A stretch of DNA of 32,000 nt from an uncultured archaeon (GTDB taxonomy: Archaea; Iainarchaeota; Iainarchaeia; Iainarchaeales; Iainarchaeaceae): positions 55,300 to 87,299 of the forward strand of contig CAZNZM010000004.1 in NCBI GenBank assembly GCA_964577555.1, given 5' to 3'. Below, in pieces: positions 24,691 through 31,833 of the stretch. Position 1 is the first letter of the stretch. Every line of letters begins with the position of its first letter. Made by a program: the position numbers and the translations under genes. Under the pieces are notes generated by a model that ran no database searches, was not told where the DNA came from, and saw only the letters and a program-made list of their open reading frames with translations.

Positions 24691-26748
24691 ATGATTAAAA
24701 TACTGGAACTTGAAAACTGGAAAACACACAAAAAAACCCGCCTAGAATTCGAAAAAGGAACAAACGTAATAGTAGGAAAAATGGGAAGCGGGAAATCATC
24801 AATACTTGACGCAATCTCCTTTGCACTATATGGCACATTTCCGTCATTAGTAGCAAAAAAAATAACACTTGAAGAAACAATGATGGCAAAACCCACAAAA
24901 CAAGACATAACAAAAGTAAAACTAATATTCGACTACAACGGCAAAGAATACGAAGTAGAAAGAATAATAAAAAGAAACGGAACCAACGAAGGCTCTCTCA
25001 GAGAATCGGGAAAACTTATTGCGGGGCCAAAAACAAGCGACATAACAAAAAAAATTTCCGAAATAATAGAATCAAACTACGACCTGTTCAGCAGAGCAAT
25101 ATACTCCGAACAAAACCAAATAGACTTCTTCCTAAAAATGACGCCAGCACAAAGAAAAGAAAAACTCGACGAATTACTGGGCTTGGACAAATACGAAAAA
25201 GTAAGATCAAACGCATCCACACTAGCCACCAGAATAAAAAAAATCGCAGAAGACAAGAAAAAAATACTTGAAGACCAAAAAAAGAAAAACAACCCAAACC
25301 AAATAACAGAATATGAAAAACGAATAAATGAAAAAAAAACAGAACTTGAAAGAATAGAAAAATCAATACAACAAACAGAAACAACACTAAAACAAAAGGA
25401 AACAACACTAAAAAAACTTGAAGAAACTGAAAGATTATTTAAGACACTCAAAGAAACAGAAATAAGAGAAAAATCCAAGTTGGAATCAATAATAGAACAA
25501 ATAGAAGCAGGAAAGAAAAAAACAGAAAAAATAAACCCGGAAACAATAAACAAAAAAATCACAGAACTGCAAAACCAACTAACAACAGAAGAAGAAAACA
25601 AAAAAAAATTAGAAAACGAAAAAAAAGAACAAGAAAAAAAAATAACAAACTCAAAAGAAAAAAAAGCAGCTGCAAACAGCATGCTCAACCTAAACACTAA
25701 AAATTCAACAAACATTGCAAGCCTAAAAGCAAATTGCCCAATATGCAGAAAACCACTGACAGAACACGACAAAGAAAAACTTTCAAAAGAAATGAAGGAA
25801 GAACAGGAAAACCTGATAAAACAAATAAAAGAAATAGAAAAAGAAATAGCAAATACTTCAACAAAAATAAACGAAATAGAAAAAAAAATAGCAAACACTG
25901 AACAAAACAAAGAAACACTGCAAAAAGAGATAATTGAAAACAAAAGACTATTAGAAATAGCAAACGAAATAACAACAAAAGAAAAACAAAAAACAATCAT
26001 AGAAGAAAACCTAAAGAAAAACTCGCAAACCATTGCAGAATTAAATTTTGACGAAAAACAACTCAAAGAAGCAAGAAACGAATATTACGCATTGAGAGAA
26101 AAAATGACAAAAGAAAGAACAACAGCCATTTCAACAAAAGACATTATAAAAGAACTTGAAGAAACATACAAAAGAATAAAAGACACACAAAAACAAATGA
26201 TTGAACTTGAAAATCAGATAAAAGAATACGAAACAGCAGCAGAAAAAATGACAATATTCACAAGCGCAACAATGGCAACACAAGCAGAGTTAAGAAATCT
26301 AATGGTGGAAAACATCAACATGGCAATGGAAGAACTCTGGCCGAAAATCTATCCTTACGGCGATTTCTCGCAAATAAAAATAATAGTCAAAGAAGGAAGC
26401 TACGAAATAATGGCGAAACAAAAAAACAATGAATGGACAAGAATAGAAGGAATACTATCAGGCGGAGAAAGAAGCGCAGCAGCAATAACAATAAGAATAG
26501 CGCTTTCCCTGGTGCTTACCCAAAACCTTGGCTGGATAATGCTGGACGAACCAACACACAACCTTGATGCAAACTCAGTAAACAGGCTTGCAGAAACCCT
26601 TGGAACATACCTCCCACAAATCATTGAACAAATTTTCATAATAACACACGACAAAGAAATGGAAAACGCTGCATCTGGAAAATTATACATTTTTGAAAGA
26701 GAAAAAGAAGAAGACGCTCCAACAAAAATAAACAACATAGAAAAATAA
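24691..26748 (+). CDS. rad50: Rad50 DNA double-strand break repair ATPase (short coiled-coil form)
   Basis: Walker A is VGKMGSGKSSILDAISFALYG. A long K/E-rich coiled coil carries the CxxC zinc hook ANCPICRKPL. The signature is LSGGERSAAAITIRIALS, Walker B is IMLDEPTHNLD and the H-loop is FIITHD. Confidence 0.9.
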   Translation: MIKILELENWKTHKKTRLEFEKGTNVIVGKMGSGKSSILDAISFALYGTFPSLVAKKITLEETMMAKPTKQDITKVKLIFDYNGKEYEVERIIKRNGTNEGSLRESGKLIAGPKTSDITKKISEIIESNYDLFSRAIYSEQNQIDFFLKMTPAQRKEKLDELLGLDKYEKVRSNASTLATRIKKIAEDKKKILEDQKKKNNPNQITEYEKRINEKKTELERIEKSIQQTETTLKQKETTLKKLEETERLFKTLKETEIREKSKLESIIEQIEAGKKKTEKINPETINKKITELQNQLTTEEENKKKLENEKKEQEKKITNSKEKKAAANSMLNLNTKNSTNIASLKANCPICRKPLTEHDKEKLSKEMKEEQENLIKQIKEIEKEIANTSTKINEIEKKIANTEQNKETLQKEIIENKRLLEIANEITTKEKQKTIIEENLKKNSQTIAELNFDEKQLKEARNEYYALREKMTKERTTAISTKDIIKELEETYKRIKDTQKQMIELENQIKEYETAAEKMTIFTSATMATQAELRNLMVENINMAMEELWPKIYPYGDFSQIKIIVKEGSYEIMAKQKNNEWTRIEGILSGGERSAAAITIRIALSLVLTQNLGWIMLDEPTHNLDANSVNRLAETLGTYLPQIIEQIFIITHDKEMENAASGKLYIFEREKEEDAPTKINNIEK

Positions 26749-27216
26749 AATGAATAAAACGGCTCACCAAAAAAACGCCAAACAAAACAAAAGACTGCTC
26801 AAAATAAAAAAAATACAAAAAAATAGCCAAACACAAAAAAACTATAAAATCAAAAAAACGGCTCACAAAACAAACAACAAAAAAAGTAAATTCCAAATAA
26901 AAAAACAAACCACTCTACAAAAAAATGACAAAAAAAACGGCTCACTAAAAAAATTAAAAAAAACGTTCAAAAAAAAATCATGAAAAAAAATTGCCTAAAA
27001 AAAAACGGCTCGGAAAAAAACAAAATTTCAAACAAAAAAATACCGAACAAAAAAATAATTCAAAAAAAATGACAAAAAGTGGCTAAAACAAAAAAAACAA
27101 AATTAATTTTAAAAAAATAATTAAAAAAAAATTCTAAAAAAAACAAATCACAAAAAAAACACGCTTAAAAAAATACTTGGATCGCAAAAACAAAAAAAAT
27201 AAAAACAACAAAAAAA
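26749..27216 (+). repeat. Roughly 470 bp degenerate tandem array of A-run plus anchor-motif units between convergent genes
   Basis: CGGCTCAC is at 26760, 26859 and 26938; CGGCTCGG at 27006; GTGGCTA at 27079; TTGGATCGC at 27177. Spacing is about 70-100 bp. aaaatgacaaaaa modules lie at about 26924 and 27066, and aaaaataatt modules are also present. Confidence 0.7.
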
Positions 27217-27405
27217 TTACTTAGACTCCGCCTTTTTTCTGGTAAGAAAACCAGCAATAAGATTTCTGACAGTCTTACTCATGTCCATTCCCAAAGAATC
27301 AATAAAACGCTTATTAGCCTCGAAATCAGTTGTTATCTTATCAGGATAAGTTGCAAGCAAAATATTTGCCTTGCTTTTAATATTCTTAGGAACAGCTTTA
27401 CCCAT
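27217..27405 (-). CDS. rps17e: Ribosomal protein eS17 (S17e)
   Basis: MGKAVPKNIKSKANILLATYPDKITTDFEANKRFIDSLGMDMSKTVRNLIAGFLTRKK matches the archaeal S17e pattern (DFE-NK...SK-RN-IAGY-TR). ATG 27405 overlaps the rpoK stop (TGATG). Confidence 0.85.
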   Translation of the reverse strand: MGKAVPKNIKSKANILLATYPDKITTDFEANKRFIDSLGMDMSKTVRNLIAGFLTRKKAESK

Positions 27406-27611
27406 CAATTCACCTCGACCTTCTCAACCCTTCCATCAGGATACTCCCTTACAACAGCCAAAGGAATAACCTTTTTCTCAAATTCAGCCTTTGCAATATC
27501 AAAAGGAGTTTCATTTTTATGAATTTTCACAAGAGGAGGAGCTCCAAGAGATATTTGAAGAGCCCTGGCACTAATCAAACGCGTAACTTCAAACCTTGTC
27601 AACCTTGCCAT
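27405..27611 (-). CDS. rpoK: DNA-directed RNA polymerase subunit K (Rpo6/RpoK)
   Basis: The start is taken at MARLTRFEVTRLISARALQISLGAPPLV, the conserved LTRFE...RALQIS.GAP motif. IPLAVVREYPDG also matches. Confidence 0.85.
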   Translation of the reverse strand: MARLTRFEVTRLISARALQISLGAPPLVKIHKNETPFDIAKAEFEKKVIPLAVVREYPDGRVEKVEVN

Positions 27612-27798
27612 AAAAACACCTTCTTCAAAATAAGCAAACTCGCATAATCTTGTATCTTGTATAATCACGCACACAAAACATTAAAAAAGATGATTATAAA
27701 AGCACAAAACAGCAAAAAAAACCATTTAAACTAAAAAAAACCAAAAAAAATTAAAAAAAAATAGCCATGCAAATTCAAAAAAAAACACAAATCAGCTA

Positions 27799-29283
27799 TC
27801 AAACCCAGCCACGAACCTCCAAAAGCCCCTTTTCAAGGCGATAAATCTCGGAAAGCTTTTTCAAAACAGAAAGCACAGCACCCTTTCCAACCAATATTTT
27901 TGAATCACTAGCAGAACCAGAACGACAACCAGAACAAACAACCGAACGCTCAACCTCCTTTAAAACAGATGAAGAAAAAGCGTCAACCGAAAAAGCAACA
28001 GATTCCATAAAAAAACCACTCTCACGAGAAGACAACAAAAAAGGCAAAGAACCAAGAATATCAAGACACGCATGCAAACAAGACTTGGCTAACAAAAAAC
28101 CAGAACTCAATTCCAACGCTTGCGAATAAAAAACACCATTAGAAGCAATCGTTGAAACACTAAGACAATCAATAAAATAATTAGCATTCAAAACACAACC
28201 CCTCAACTTTTCAATTTCAACCGACAAAACACTCCGAGACTTAAAACAACTCCAATTCATGGAAGAAACCCCAATTATAAAGCCAGCACCCTGCTCCTGA
28301 ACAGAAATTGCGTCAGGCAAAAGCAAATCACAAACATTGTTCCTAAAAAAAGGGCCACAAGGAAAAAAATCAAAAGAATATTCAAGCTTTCTTTCCAACC
28401 TAGAAGCCTTAAAATCATGCGACTCGTGAAAACCTAAAGCCCAAGACTTTGAAATTGAATTAAAAAAGAAACCATCTTTAAGAAACCTTACCTTCACAAG
28501 AGAAGAAGGCAAAACATTTTGAGCATCAACCGAATCTGGCTTGCAACAAAAACAATTAACCTTGTCAAGACCCAAATTCACATTAGGAAGAGAAATAATC
28601 GCCGACACCAAACGAGAAAAATTAATCTCAGCAGAACCAAAAACCTTTGAAAATCTCTTTTTAAACGAAACAAATTTGGCTTCAAAAGAAAAACCAGAAG
28701 CAAAAAAAACATTTTCAAGAAAAATCACGGCGCGAGACCTGCCGACAGAAAAACGGGAAAACAAAGGAAATTTAAGTAAATTAGAATAAACCACAAGCTC
28801 AAAAAAGTGACGAAGATTCTTATCCTTTGAATCGCCAAAAAGCAATAATAAATCAGAAGCCAATCCAACAAAGTCATTATTCATGACAAAAAGAGGAAAA
28901 CAAACAACTTCATCATCAAAAACAAACAAATCAAAATAACTCCAACCCATTGAAACAAGAAACTGACGTTCAGGTTCTATTATACCAACCTTAAAACAAA
29001 AAAAAGATTCAAGACAATTAGCGGCTGATTTCAAATCCTCAAAAGAATCAAACTTAAGACAAGCATTTGAACCGGAAAAATAAACATTCCTAGGAGAAAC
29101 ACAAGCACACCGCAAAACCTCAATAAAATCCTCTTCAGAAAGCCCATTCAACGGAAAAAACAACCTTGGAAAATACTCAAAAACACGTTCAACCTTGCCG
29201 CTTCTGGACAAAAAAACAACCTTTATCGAAGACCTACCATCATAAATAACATCATACAAAAAATAACAATTGTTTGGGAGCAT
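27799..29283 (-). CDS. Large Cys/Phe-rich hypothetical protein; weak ordered resemblance to the N-terminal/exonuclease/motif A part of family B DNA polymerases
   Basis: This is an intact 494-aa ORF from ATG 29283; the track start 29349 is TTG. Ordered segments are FLYDVIYDG..IKVVFL..GKVERVFEYFPRLFFPL, IIEPERQFLVSMGW, FVFDDE, GFSFEAKF, EYSFD and LDILGSLPF. No KxxxNSxYG or DTDS motif is present. See findings. Confidence 0.45.
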   Translation of the reverse strand: MLPNNCYFLYDVIYDGRSSIKVVFLSRSGKVERVFEYFPRLFFPLNGLSEEDFIEVLRCACVSPRNVYFSGSNACLKFDSFEDLKSAANCLESFFCFKVGIIEPERQFLVSMGWSYFDLFVFDDEVVCFPLFVMNNDFVGLASDLLLLFGDSKDKNLRHFFELVVYSNLLKFPLFSRFSVGRSRAVIFLENVFFASGFSFEAKFVSFKKRFSKVFGSAEINFSRLVSAIISLPNVNLGLDKVNCFCCKPDSVDAQNVLPSSLVKVRFLKDGFFFNSISKSWALGFHESHDFKASRLERKLEYSFDFFPCGPFFRNNVCDLLLPDAISVQEQGAGFIIGVSSMNWSCFKSRSVLSVEIEKLRGCVLNANYFIDCLSVSTIASNGVFYSQALELSSGFLLAKSCLHACLDILGSLPFLLSSRESGFFMESVAFSVDAFSSSVLKEVERSVVCSGCRSGSASDSKILVGKGAVLSVLKKLSEIYRLEKGLLEVRGWV

Positions 29284-29345: not shown

Positions 29346-29981
29346 TCAAATTTGTTTTTTAAGAGGCCATTTCAAATTTTTATAATGAACCTTTTTACTT
29401 TGCAAAACATTCAATAAAACAGGCACCACAGAAACACCAATTATCAACAATATTACAACAGTCAAAAACTCTGAAGAATCAGGAAATAAAACGCCAAAAA
29501 TAAAACCGGCAGAAATCATTACAGAAGCCCAAAAAAAACCGCCAACAACATTATAAACCAAAAAAACATGATAATCCATTCGCCCAATACCTGCAACAAT
29601 AGGAGCAAAAGTCCTGACAACAGGAACAAACCTAGCCAAAACAATAGCAATCTTGCCATGTTTAGCATAAAAATCCTCAGCCTCCCTAATATGCACAGGA
29701 TCCCTAAAAAAATCACCACTTTTAGTAAAAAACCTGCGCCCAAACTTGTTGCCACTCCAATAACCTACCTGATCACCAAGAACAGCGGAAATAGTAACAC
29801 CCAACAACAAAAACCAATAATCAAAAAAACCCTGCCTTGCAAGAAGCCCAGCAGTAAACAAAAGAGAATCCCCGGGCAAAAAGAAACCAAAAAAAAGCCC
29901 GCTTTCCGCAAAAACTATTAAAAAAATCCCAACATAACTAAAATTCAACAGCAAAGATTCAAGAGAACCAAACAAAACCAT
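29346..29981 (-). CDS. dedA: DedA / VTT-domain membrane protein
   Basis: The DedA signature is YVGIFLIVFAESGLFFGFFLPGDSLLFTAGLLA...GDQVGYWSGNKFGRRFF...HGKIAIVLARFVPVVRTFAPIVAG. ATG 29981 is preferred over TTG 30044. Confidence 0.85.
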   Translation of the reverse strand: MVLFGSLESLLLNFSYVGIFLIVFAESGLFFGFFLPGDSLLFTAGLLARQGFFDYWFLLLGVTISAVLGDQVGYWSGNKFGRRFFTKSGDFFRDPVHIREAEDFYAKHGKIAIVLARFVPVVRTFAPIVAGIGRMDYHVFLVYNVVGGFFWASVMISAGFIFGVLFPDSSEFLTVVILLIIGVSVVPVLLNVLQSKKVHYKNLKWPLKKQI

Positions 29982-30066: not shown

Positions 30067-30648
30067 TCAAAGCAACTTAAAAACATAATACATGTCTAGA
30101 GATTTAATAGGAAACTCTTCAAATTTTCCCATATTAGATTGAATTTTTTTAATTAACCGCTCTTCAACAGAATTTGATTCAGGAGTTCTTGAAACAACAC
30201 ATAAATCTTTTTGAATTCTATTAACTATTGAAAAATTAGACCCATCTTTACTTGGAACTTGAAACACCAAAAATTTTCTAAAAAAAACGTCAAAAACAAC
30301 AAAAAACTTGGTTGAATTTGATTTTACTGATAAACAAACCGTTGGAATTTCATAATTAAAGCCTCCAACTCTAATTTTCAACCTTTCAACATCAAAAATT
30401 TTTTTAAAAACACTAAACATTTTCAATTCATTAAAATAAGACAGCCTGCGATTAAGCAATCTAGTAATTCGAACAGCATCCAACTTTACAACATTATCTG
30501 GTTTTGTCAAATCATAAAACGACTTGTTTTGAACCGATAAGTTCTCAATTAACTCTTTAAAAGCAGCTTCCGCAACGGCTAATTTTGAAGACAAACCCTT
30601 TATCCTTCTTTTTCTTCGACGACTTCTTCTAAAACCGCCAAAAATCAT
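30067..30648 (-). CDS. Hypothetical protein with Arg-rich N-terminus
   Basis: This is an intact 193-aa ORF beginning MIFGGFRRSRRRKRRIKG. A TATA-like box lies about 26 nt upstream. I recognise no family. The composition is ordinary, unlike the minus-strand genes to its left. Confidence 0.5.
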   Translation of the reverse strand: MIFGGFRRSRRRKRRIKGLSSKLAVAEAAFKELIENLSVQNKSFYDLTKPDNVVKLDAVRITRLLNRRLSYFNELKMFSVFKKIFDVERLKIRVGGFNYEIPTVCLSVKSNSTKFFVVFDVFFRKFLVFQVPSKDGSNFSIVNRIQKDLCVVSRTPESNSVEERLIKKIQSNMGKFEEFPIKSLDMYYVFKLL

Positions 30649-30719: not shown

Positions 30720-30741
30720 ATGGTTTGCCAACTTGTATTTT

Positions 30742-31833
30742 ATGGAAATTTCTTTTGTAATTGAAAAAACGGTTTCCGCAATACATTCACAAGAAGCAAG
30801 AAAAAAATACGTTGCCGAAAAACTGACACACATAAAGAATAACAAACTCGGCTTTGAATGCGAAGGAATTCCTGAAAATTTTATTTCTTTCCAAGTTGAA
30901 AAATGGGTCCCCGAAGGAAGCATTGCGGGAGTCGATTCTGGATTTATATCAAAAAAACTTGCTTCAATTGACTTGGTTCTTTTGCGAGCAATAGGAGTAG
31001 TATTCAATTTCAAAAACGGGGTTGTTTCTTCAACCAACTATTACCCTGATTATTTTCACTTTCCAGAACCATACTTGGCAGGAGACTCACTTGAATTCGA
31101 CGAAGTAGAACAAAGCACCAGCCTATTGAGATTAAGAGAAGAAATCAGAACAGCAAAATCCATAATTAAAACATACAAACCCAATTACCTTTTCATTGAC
31201 GGTTCAATAGTGCCACAATACCAAGACAAGCCAAGAAAAGAATCAGCACTTTCAGGCAGATACTCGGACATAATTTCCGAATTTGAAACTTTTTATGCTT
31301 GCGCAGAAGAAAATAATTGCACAATTATTGCGACTGTTGAAGATTCGCGAGGGTCAAGATTCAGACAAATTTTACAGGAAGAACTCCTACCCAAATCAAA
31401 ATTAGCCAAGCCTGAAGAACTTAACGGCTTGTTTGATTCGGCCATTTTGGATTATCTGCTTTCTGTCGGCGAACGCAGCTGCGCATTCACCTATACAAAA
31501 AATATTGCACAACACCCGGTGCTCCAAGATTTTAATTCAAAATGGGCAAAAGCAATTTATGGCATGTACTTAAAACCAAGCCTTTATGACAGACCTTTAC
31601 GCGTAGAATTCATATGCCATGGCGGGCTAAAAGAAAAAGCTGACGAAATAGCTTCAGTTGCAATGGCTCTAAGTTCACTGCATCGCGAATACGCATACCC
31701 TTCAGTATTGATTGATGCAGACATGCATGCAAAACTGAATCCTGTTGAAATAGACATAGTGGTCAACAGAATAATGGACAAACTAGGAAATTCAGTCAAA
31801 TTAAAAATGAGAAGAGACAACAGGCCATTTTAA
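30742..31833 (+). CDS. nurA: NurA-domain 5'-3' nuclease (DSB end resection)
   Basis: The NurA-like motifs are SIAGVDSGF near the N-terminus and NYLFIDGSIVPQ (DGS motif), then IIATVEDSRGS. The size is about 360 aa. ATG 30742 is preferred over the track's TTG 30733. Confidence 0.6.
   Translation: MEISFVIEKTVSAIHSQEARKKYVAEKLTHIKNNKLGFECEGIPENFISFQVEKWVPEGSIAGVDSGFISKKLASIDLVLLRAIGVVFNFKNGVVSSTNYYPDYFHFPEPYLAGDSLEFDEVEQSTSLLRLREEIRTAKSIIKTYKPNYLFIDGSIVPQYQDKPRKESALSGRYSDIISEFETFYACAEENNCTIIATVEDSRGSRFRQILQEELLPKSKLAKPEELNGLFDSAILDYLLSVGERSCAFTYTKNIAQHPVLQDFNSKWAKAIYGMYLKPSLYDRPLRVEFICHGGLKEKADEIASVAMALSSLHREYAYPSVLIDADMHAKLNPVEIDIVVNRIMDKLGNSVKLKMRRDNRPF

Follow-up and report, generated by a model that had tools for sequence, protein, structure and literature searches.

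An apparently inactivated family B DNA polymerase paralogue of Iainarchaeota with a GINS B-domain-like insertion

The question addressed here is what kind of protein is encoded by a minus-strand gene of an uncultured archaeon, all of whose family members carry the source annotation "hypothetical protein". The gene lies at positions 27799-29283 of a stretch of 32,000 nucleotides (the window), which corresponds to positions 55,300 to 87,299 of contig CAZNZM010000004.1 (assembly GCA_964577555.1). The source genome, from the Iainarchaeota ("Diapherotrites", DPANN), comprises 0.98 Mb in 15 contigs and is 95.5% complete. An earlier note on this DNA, made by a model from the sequence, had reported an open reading frame (ORF) of 494 amino acids (aa), which was indeed found at this position on the minus strand. 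The note had proposed that the product might be related to family B DNA polymerases (PolB), either as the N-terminal half of a split PolB, or as an exonuclease-only or inactivated derivative, unless the resemblance was coincidental. We consider it likely that the best overall explanation is a non-catalytic PolB paralogue, near-universal in its order, which carries a GINS-like insertion and probably serves as a structural adaptor in replication or repair. For brevity, the gene is called dead PolB below.

Relationship to family B DNA polymerases

Searches of Pfam, NCBIfam and the PDB (phmmer) with the single protein gave no match. Six close to mid-distance homologues, 85-27% identical to the target, were available, and a six-sequence profile search returned nothing useful. 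The Pfam models DNA_pol_B (PF00136) and DNA_pol_B_exo1 (PF03104) matched neither the target nor any of 87 relatives at E-values up to 0.1, and no model in Pfam or NCBIfam covers the family in this set. When the profile of 87 sequences was compared with the PDB, a single marginal match was obtained, the Pyrobaculum PolB 5mdn (E 0.025), in which motif A was paired with the D-F-S motif of the family, and the region of motifs B and C with its C-terminal quarter. An AlphaFold2 model of the target, built on the 87-sequence alignment, reached a predicted local distance difference test score (pLDDT) of 93.0 and a predicted template modelling score (pTM) of 0.92. With this model, a Foldseek search of the PDB returned family B polymerases exclusively (probability 1.00, best E 2.6e-7), and residues 8-494 covered residues 1-583 of the 773-residue PolB chain of Tgo, a stretch that includes the whole palm but none of the thumb. 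The ESM Atlas model of the target is poor (pLDDT 0.32), and its matches were uninformative, except for a PolB cluster at a template modelling (TM) score of 0.37.

Profile-profile comparison provided sequence support for the homology that is independent of the structure model. The family profile matched the canonical PolB of the same genome with an E-value of 2.7e-9, and hhalign of the family against this single PolB gave an E-value of 8e-8. Against 28 canonical PolBs of the order, hhalign gave a probability of 98.9% and an E-value of 4e-17 over 385 columns, with family residues 1-491 spanning residues 8-609 of a PolB of 802 aa. About 150-250 columns can be aligned with PolB, at about 17% identity. 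On profile comparison and predicted structure, the protein is a PolB homologue, with an N-terminal domain, a palm and fingers in canonical order. Of the checks that the earlier note had proposed, Pfam gave no match, but the structure search and hhalign both identified PolB, and the fold match and the profile-profile comparison exclude a coincidental resemblance.

The anatomy of the protein was derived from the hhalign comparison with the 28 canonical PolBs, and conservation was counted over the columns of the 87 relatives. The resulting features, all on the minus strand, are as follows.

27799..29283, minus strand: whole coding sequence of the dead PolB paralogue, 494 aa plus stop
28948..29283, minus strand: PolB N-terminal domain, residues 1-112, including the conserved EPERQFL helix at 103-109 (hhalign on PolB 8-135, column conservation)
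28639..28947, minus strand: remnant of the exonuclease C-terminal hairpin and bridging helices, residues 113-215 (hhalign, secondary structure)
28594..28635, minus strand: equivalent of motif A, residues 217-230, strand at 219-227 (87-sequence profile, column counts, hhalign)
28543..28554, minus strand: Cys244, Cys246 and Cys247, the first three of a 3+1 tetrad (column counts; aligned with C-x-H-x2-C of the canonical PolBs of the order)
28255..28506, minus strand: lineage-specific insertion of 84 residues, 260-343, with a beta-hairpin, a helical hairpin and a B-domain-like module (hhalign, stand-alone model)
28261..28386, minus strand: module resembling a GINS B-domain, residues 300-341, with the motif GPF...G....LP..A
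28246..28248, minus strand: Cys346, the fourth of the tetrad, in a W-x-C motif common to canonical PolB (column counts, hhalign)
28030..28230, minus strand: fingers, two long helices, residues 352-418 (secondary structure, column counts, hhalign)
27802..28029, minus strand: C-terminal palm segment, residues 419-494 (Foldseek, column counts, hhalign)

Residues 113-215 align with the last hairpin of the exonuclease domain and with the helices returning to the palm, and the core that holds ExoI and ExoII, about 145 residues, is deleted, which appears as a gap in the hhalign alignment opposite PolB residues of about 136-280. Neither a D-x-E nor a Y-x3-D motif is conserved among the 87 relatives, the Tyr and Asp of ExoIII included. 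The position of the catalytic Asp of motif A is taken by Asn221 in the target, and by Asp in 60 and Asn in 14 of the 87 relatives, while Trp, Leu or Val occurs in place of the steric-gate Tyr. At the position of motif B (residues 406-420), no Lys, Asn, Tyr or Gly is conserved, and the hairpin position of motif C (about 454-466) has no Asp-Thr-Asp and no conserved acidic residues in this set. The C-terminus corresponds to PolB residue 609 of 802, where the thumb would begin, and the protein has no thumb. Since the exonuclease core and the thumb are missing, motifs B and C have been erased, and the motif A Asp has been replaced by Asn, we regard the protein as a dead PolB paralogue, for which both polymerisation and proofreading would presumably be out of reach.

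These assignments differ in several places from the landmarks that had been proposed by eye. The first two landmarks do align to the N-terminal domain of PolB as suggested, one at residues 8-44 and the other in the EPERQFL helix (103-109). However, FVFDDE, which had been read as ExoI, aligns after ExoII; GFSFEAKF, the supposed ExoII, sits just ahead of motif A; EYSFD, taken for ExoIII, is located inside the lineage-specific insertion; and LDILGSLPF, proposed as motif A, occupies the position of motif B, whereas the true motif A equivalent is at residues 219-227. Nor does the protein end before motifs B and C: the chain passes through both positions, which are degenerate, and ends ahead of the thumb. 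Both the fold and the profile-profile comparison support an inactivated PolB derivative, whereas an exonuclease-only protein is ruled out, because the exonuclease core is precisely what was lost.

The palm insertion and the cysteine tetrad

The 84-residue insertion occupies the loop that joins motif A to the fingers, and it is absent from canonical PolB according to hhalign. When it was modelled alone on the same homologues, the pLDDT was 96.4. In this model, residues 300-341 form a three-stranded antiparallel sheet with an alpha-helix, which corresponds to the definition of the GINS B-domain (PMC2861644), a fold that is shared by a domain of PriS (PMC2861644). A Foldseek search with the insertion model yielded no significant match; its best entries were GINS subunits, led by the C-terminal domain of Gins51 (5ghr_B) at a probability of 0.87, below significance, and the listing contained 22 consecutive GINS entries, with up to 25% identity to human Psf1. 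The Pfam model PSF2_N was hit by four of the 87 relatives, with a best E-value of 0.005, below the cut-off, and Gins51_C was hit by one. The full-length family profile aligned with that of 30 GINS proteins of the order at a probability of 43% and an E-value of 2.4e-4, and the insertion alone reached 82-86% and 5e-6 to 1e-5 in this one comparison. A motif common to the family and GINS, G-P-F..G....L-P..A..L, emerged from these alignments. Judged by the predicted fold and by this motif, residues 300-341 resemble a B-domain, preceded by the beta-hairpin and the helical hairpin. The P-domain of Pol epsilon was considered as an alternative identity of the insertion and dropped, as no Pol epsilon chain was present among the listed structural matches in Foldseek and in wider searches.

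The insertion is bracketed by four cysteines, three before and one after, each of which is present in 86 of the 87 relatives. Cys244, Cys246 and Cys247 come after a conserved N-L-G-x-E-T turn, and Trp344-x-Cys346 falls on the W-F-C motif of canonical PolBs in the alignment. In the order, canonical PolBs have C-x-[H/C]-x2-C followed after 13 residues by C at this site, and the four positions are occupied in 27, 27 (21 His and 6 Cys), 27 and 27 of the 28 sequences; in the PolB on contig 5 of the source genome (L047) the site spans residues 458-477, between motif A and the fingers. Because the canonical PolBs have their tetrad at the equivalent place, the cysteine site is older than the insertion. 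Going by its sequence pattern, the canonical tetrad could bind a metal, at the place where Pol epsilon has its CysX and Thermococcus a disulfide. We infer that the tetrad of dead PolB likewise binds a metal (Zn or Fe-S), which would staple the insertion at the hinge of the fingers.

Distribution, coding status and gene neighbourhood

A profile search of 1.84 billion representatives recovered 171 proteins, 128 of them at E-values up to 1e-30, most of which are 480-530 aa long and align from end to end. An open frame of the gene was present in 182 of 201 sampled Iainarchaeota genomes, and in 56 of the 58 high-quality ones. The family is confined to this one lineage and nearly universal in it. 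In one family of the order (f22), none of the seven genomes contains the gene. The f22 genomes still have HerA, PolD and PolB, and a search for a partner that was lost together with dead PolB in f22 therefore gave no lead.

The base composition of the window explains why the gene is hard to recognize. Over the whole window (1-32000), the AT skew lies between +0.1 and +0.65, regardless of gene orientation, and the cumulative GC skew decreases monotonically. In plus-strand genes, about 0.6 of the third codon positions are A, and the encoded proteins are rich in Lys, Glu and Ile, and the minus-strand genes all mirror this, with T at about 0.55-0.6 and products rich in Ser, Leu, Phe and Val. In dead PolB, T accounts for 0.61 of the third positions, and the four residues Ser, Leu, Phe and Val for 48% of the protein, so the earlier remark that its identity was masked by skewed composition was right. 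Because the A-poor strand yields long spurious ORFs, such as a frame of 329 aa opposite rad50 (25077-26066, minus strand), the length of an ORF alone does not prove that it is a gene. That dead PolB is coding is shown by its 171 homologous cluster representatives and by the frame being intact in 182 genomes, a conservation that rules out a spurious ORF or a non-coding RNA on the A-poor strand. A scan of the window with Rfam detected a tRNA elsewhere in the window and nothing else. In the comparison of homologues, every relative begins at the Met of position 29283, and an in-frame TTG at 29349 is a possible alternative start, which would add 22 residues.

To describe the neighbourhood, regions of 17.5 kb around the gene were taken from 20 genomes of many families of the order, and their ORFs were clustered. 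The neighbours in the window that matter here are listed below.

27405..27674, minus strand: rpoK (Rpb6), the immediate downstream neighbour (Pfam)
27217..27408, minus strand: gene for ribosomal protein S17e, the next gene downstream
24691..26748, plus strand: rad50, convergent with the dead PolB-rpoK pair, in conserved synteny (Pfam)
30733..31833, plus strand: nurA (Pfam)

The common order is nurA, herA, a variable gene, dead PolB and rpoK, convergent with rad50 and the genes for EF-1beta and the CCA-adding enzyme. In 19 of 21 loci, rpoK comes next after dead PolB in the same orientation, at a distance of 0-125 bp. The variable gene that follows herA encodes a VTT protein, a Na/Ca exchanger, a PIN protein or a protein of unknown type; with these identities, it was rejected as a candidate for Mre11. 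In the window itself, the order is VTT, dead PolB, rpoK and rps17e. Its nurA has the opposite orientation and herA is not part of it, whereas in most relatives nurA and herA are located upstream on the same strand as dead PolB.

Several other observations were made in the window, the genome and its relatives. The rad50 gene in the window has no adjacent mre11, and the genes for double-strand break repair are dispersed. A 77-aa ORF without a family match (26750-26983, plus strand) starts at the stop codon of rad50, and a 193-aa ORF (30067-30648, minus strand) has a weak match to T4 y05I-like proteins (E 0.003). Elsewhere in the genome we found MCM, three DHH proteins, a GINS gene that follows priS directly, and an Mre11-like phosphoesterase, the latter a Metallophos ORF of 411 aa on contig 2 (L044). 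On contig 2 (L019:95-1938, plus strand), priS, whose 431-aa product contains a Cys-rich Zn motif, shares 4 nt with the single GINS gene (183 aa), an overlap that is seen in many archaea. Given these GINS and Mre11-like genes, dead PolB was discarded as a stand-in for a missing GINS or Mre11. The herA genes of several relatives contain inteins (Intein_splicing and LAGLIDADG), in ORFs of 773-1695 aa, e.g. L035:3346-6726 (plus strand), L027, L029 and L033. Inteins are also probable in the PolB ORFs of some relatives (G033, G039 and G125), which are 1253-1311 aa long and match in two pieces. A few genomes of the order have a second, divergent full-length PolB (G025:C15:171798-172934, G007:C10:120801-121928), in ORFs of 752-760 aa that are 31-35% identical to the main PolB; it may belong to the bacterial-type group reported for some DPANN lineages (PMC7544198).

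Proposed role and comparison with known polymerases

Since GINS B-domains are docking modules, the most economical model for dead PolB is a non-catalytic subunit of the replisome or of a repair complex that docks by means of its B-like module, a model built on analogy that we put forward tentatively, at somewhat less than an even chance. In Thermococcus, Gins51C binds GAN and the N-terminus of DP1 (PMC9023282). The B-like module of dead PolB would dock on such a partner of GINS B-domains, either a GAN/RecJ-type DHH protein or the N-terminus of the PolD subunit DP1, and the PolB-derived core would contact DNA or another polymerase, with a metal at the tetrad holding the insertion in place at the finger hinge. 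The protein would then act as a structural adaptor in replication or repair, in loose analogy to the inactive PolB module of eukaryotic Pol epsilon.

Other explanations have to be weighed against this docking subunit. The protein might be only the N-terminal half of a PolB that is split or truncated, with a separate C-terminal gene or trans-splicing inteins to complete it, comparable to Nanoarchaeum, and indeed its chain stops before the thumb and split PolB genes are known in archaea (PMC4104785). However, the inventory of PolB and PolD genes and the search for a split partner, as suggested in the earlier note, revealed one full PolB, both DP2 and DP1 of PolD, and no orphan C-terminal PolB half in this 95.5% complete genome. 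The single DNA_pol_B (PF00136) match is a complete gene of 802 aa with exo1 and polymerase domains on contig 5, and the only other exo1 match is a complete stand-alone 3'-5' exonuclease of 189 aa (PF10108 and PF03104) on contig 14. (This exonuclease gene, L003:1390-1959 on the minus strand, has an intact D-I-E-T ExoI motif and adjoins the TBP gene.) A full PolB was also present in all 41 sampled high-quality genomes of the order, Pfam detected no intein families in the target or the 87 relatives, and the length of about 500 aa is constant in about 180 genomes that carry a full PolB as well. Moreover, the positions of motifs B and C are there, in degenerate form. The split-gene proposal is thus unsupported, and we regard it as hardly credible. 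It is also very improbable that the protein has retained an enzymatic activity, as a minimal nucleotidyl transferase or a nucleotide-binding protein that uses the motif A Asp and other acidic residues. This Asp is found in 60 of the 87 members, PolBs without the motif C Asp are known to be active, and PolB2 has been re-evaluated as active (PMC7544198), but the target itself has Asn at the motif A position, motif C lacks a conserved acidic pair, motif B lacks Lys, Asn and Tyr, and a thumb to grip the primer-template is missing.

Outside the replisome, dead PolB could be an accessory of double-strand break resection by HerA-NurA and Rad50-Mre11, where it would hold DNA ends or recruit a repair polymerase. 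The arrangement nurA-herA-(variable gene)-dead PolB-rpoK, convergent with rad50, occurs in 17-19 of the 21 loci, in many families of the order, and would fit such a function. Yet this synteny may be mere inheritance within one order, and because the gene between herA and dead PolB varies, the two do not form one tight operon. In addition, the window has nurA in inverted orientation and no herA near dead PolB, and the f22 genomes keep HerA without dead PolB. We therefore judge a resection accessory to be unlikely, and prefer the docking subunit with its B-like module.

Dead polymerase paralogues, such as archaeal PolB2 and the C-terminal half of Pol epsilon, recur in replication machines and are poorly understood. 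The present family is an extreme and tidy case, cut down to N-terminal domain, palm and fingers, and near-universal in a DPANN order with genomes of about 1 Mb, in which retained genes are likely to matter. As such, it could serve to test by experiment how dead polymerases come to be used as scaffolds, and it is relevant to the question of whether palm insertions stapled by a metal have more than one origin. In the literature that we searched on inactivated PolBs in DPANN, on Diapherotrites PolB and on GINS B-domain insertions, only the PolB2 group and the Pol epsilon C-terminal module were found, and the combination of a PolB core with a docking domain of the GINS B-type is an architecture without description there.

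Among active enzymes, the closest comparison is with archaeal PolB of the PolB3 type, as in Thermococcus and Pyrococcus and in the 802-aa PolB of the lineage itself. The N-terminal domain, palm and fingers agree in fold and order, and the shared motifs include the EPERQFL-type helix, the motif A strand, the N-x-S/G-P/F-E-T turn, the W-F-C before the fingers and an S-R-W-Y-type helix after motif B. In contrast to PolB3, the family has no exonuclease core, no thumb, no motifs B and C and no match to Pfam DNA_pol_B or exo1, and it has the 84-residue insertion. A group of inactivated archaeal PolBs, PolB2, was reported by Rogozin 2008. As described by Makarova 2014 (PMC4104785), inactivated PolB2 proteins have full-length exonuclease and polymerase regions, are patchily distributed in archaea, and are linked to arCOG07300 and inactivated RadA genes. 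Both are paralogues with replaced catalytic residues that exist beside an active PolB and are presumed to have a regulatory or repair role, but, going by the description of PolB2 only, the present family differs in lacking two whole domains, in being restricted to one lineage, and in its linkage to rpoK and herA-nurA. GINS B-domains (the C-terminal domain of Gins51, Psf1 and Psf2) and the C-terminal domain of PriS share with the insertion the three-stranded sheet packed on a helix and the motif G-P-F...G....L-P..A, whereas the module of the family has no GINS A-domain, is set in a polymerase palm, and is preceded by an extra beta-hairpin and helical hairpin.

The last comparison is with Pol epsilon, whose C-terminal module (the C-half of Pol2, DUF1744) is likewise a dead PolB fold that has been kept for a structural role; matches to DUF1744 were seen in two family members, at a non-significant E-value of 0.018. 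Pol2-C forms one chain with an active polymerase, and Dpb2 and the Psf1 B-domain connect it to CMG, whereas the dead module of the family stands alone and carries its own B-like domain. Pol epsilon also has a P-domain and a CysX site, C665/C668/C677 ... C763, described as an "iron staple" (PMC6582351), and according to the literature no other polymerase has these two elements (PMC7544198, PMC6582351). The palm insertion of dead PolB also measures about 84 residues, lies between motif A and the fingers near the hinge, and is flanked by 3+1 cysteines, but it resembles a GINS B-domain instead, and the metal at its site is predicted. Because the insertion has no structural match to Pol epsilon, we keep this likeness as a positional parallel only. 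It is a doubtful but attractive idea that Iainarchaeota independently reached a Pol epsilon-like solution, in which a stand-alone dead PolB with a GINS B-domain insertion, stapled by a CysX-like 3+1 metal site, provides a tether to a CMG-type helicase (through GAN/RecJ) or to DP1 of PolD, while the canonical PolBs of the lineage have a site of four ligands (Cys3His or Cys4) in the equivalent place. If true, a CysX-type site in the palm of PolB would be no eukaryotic invention.

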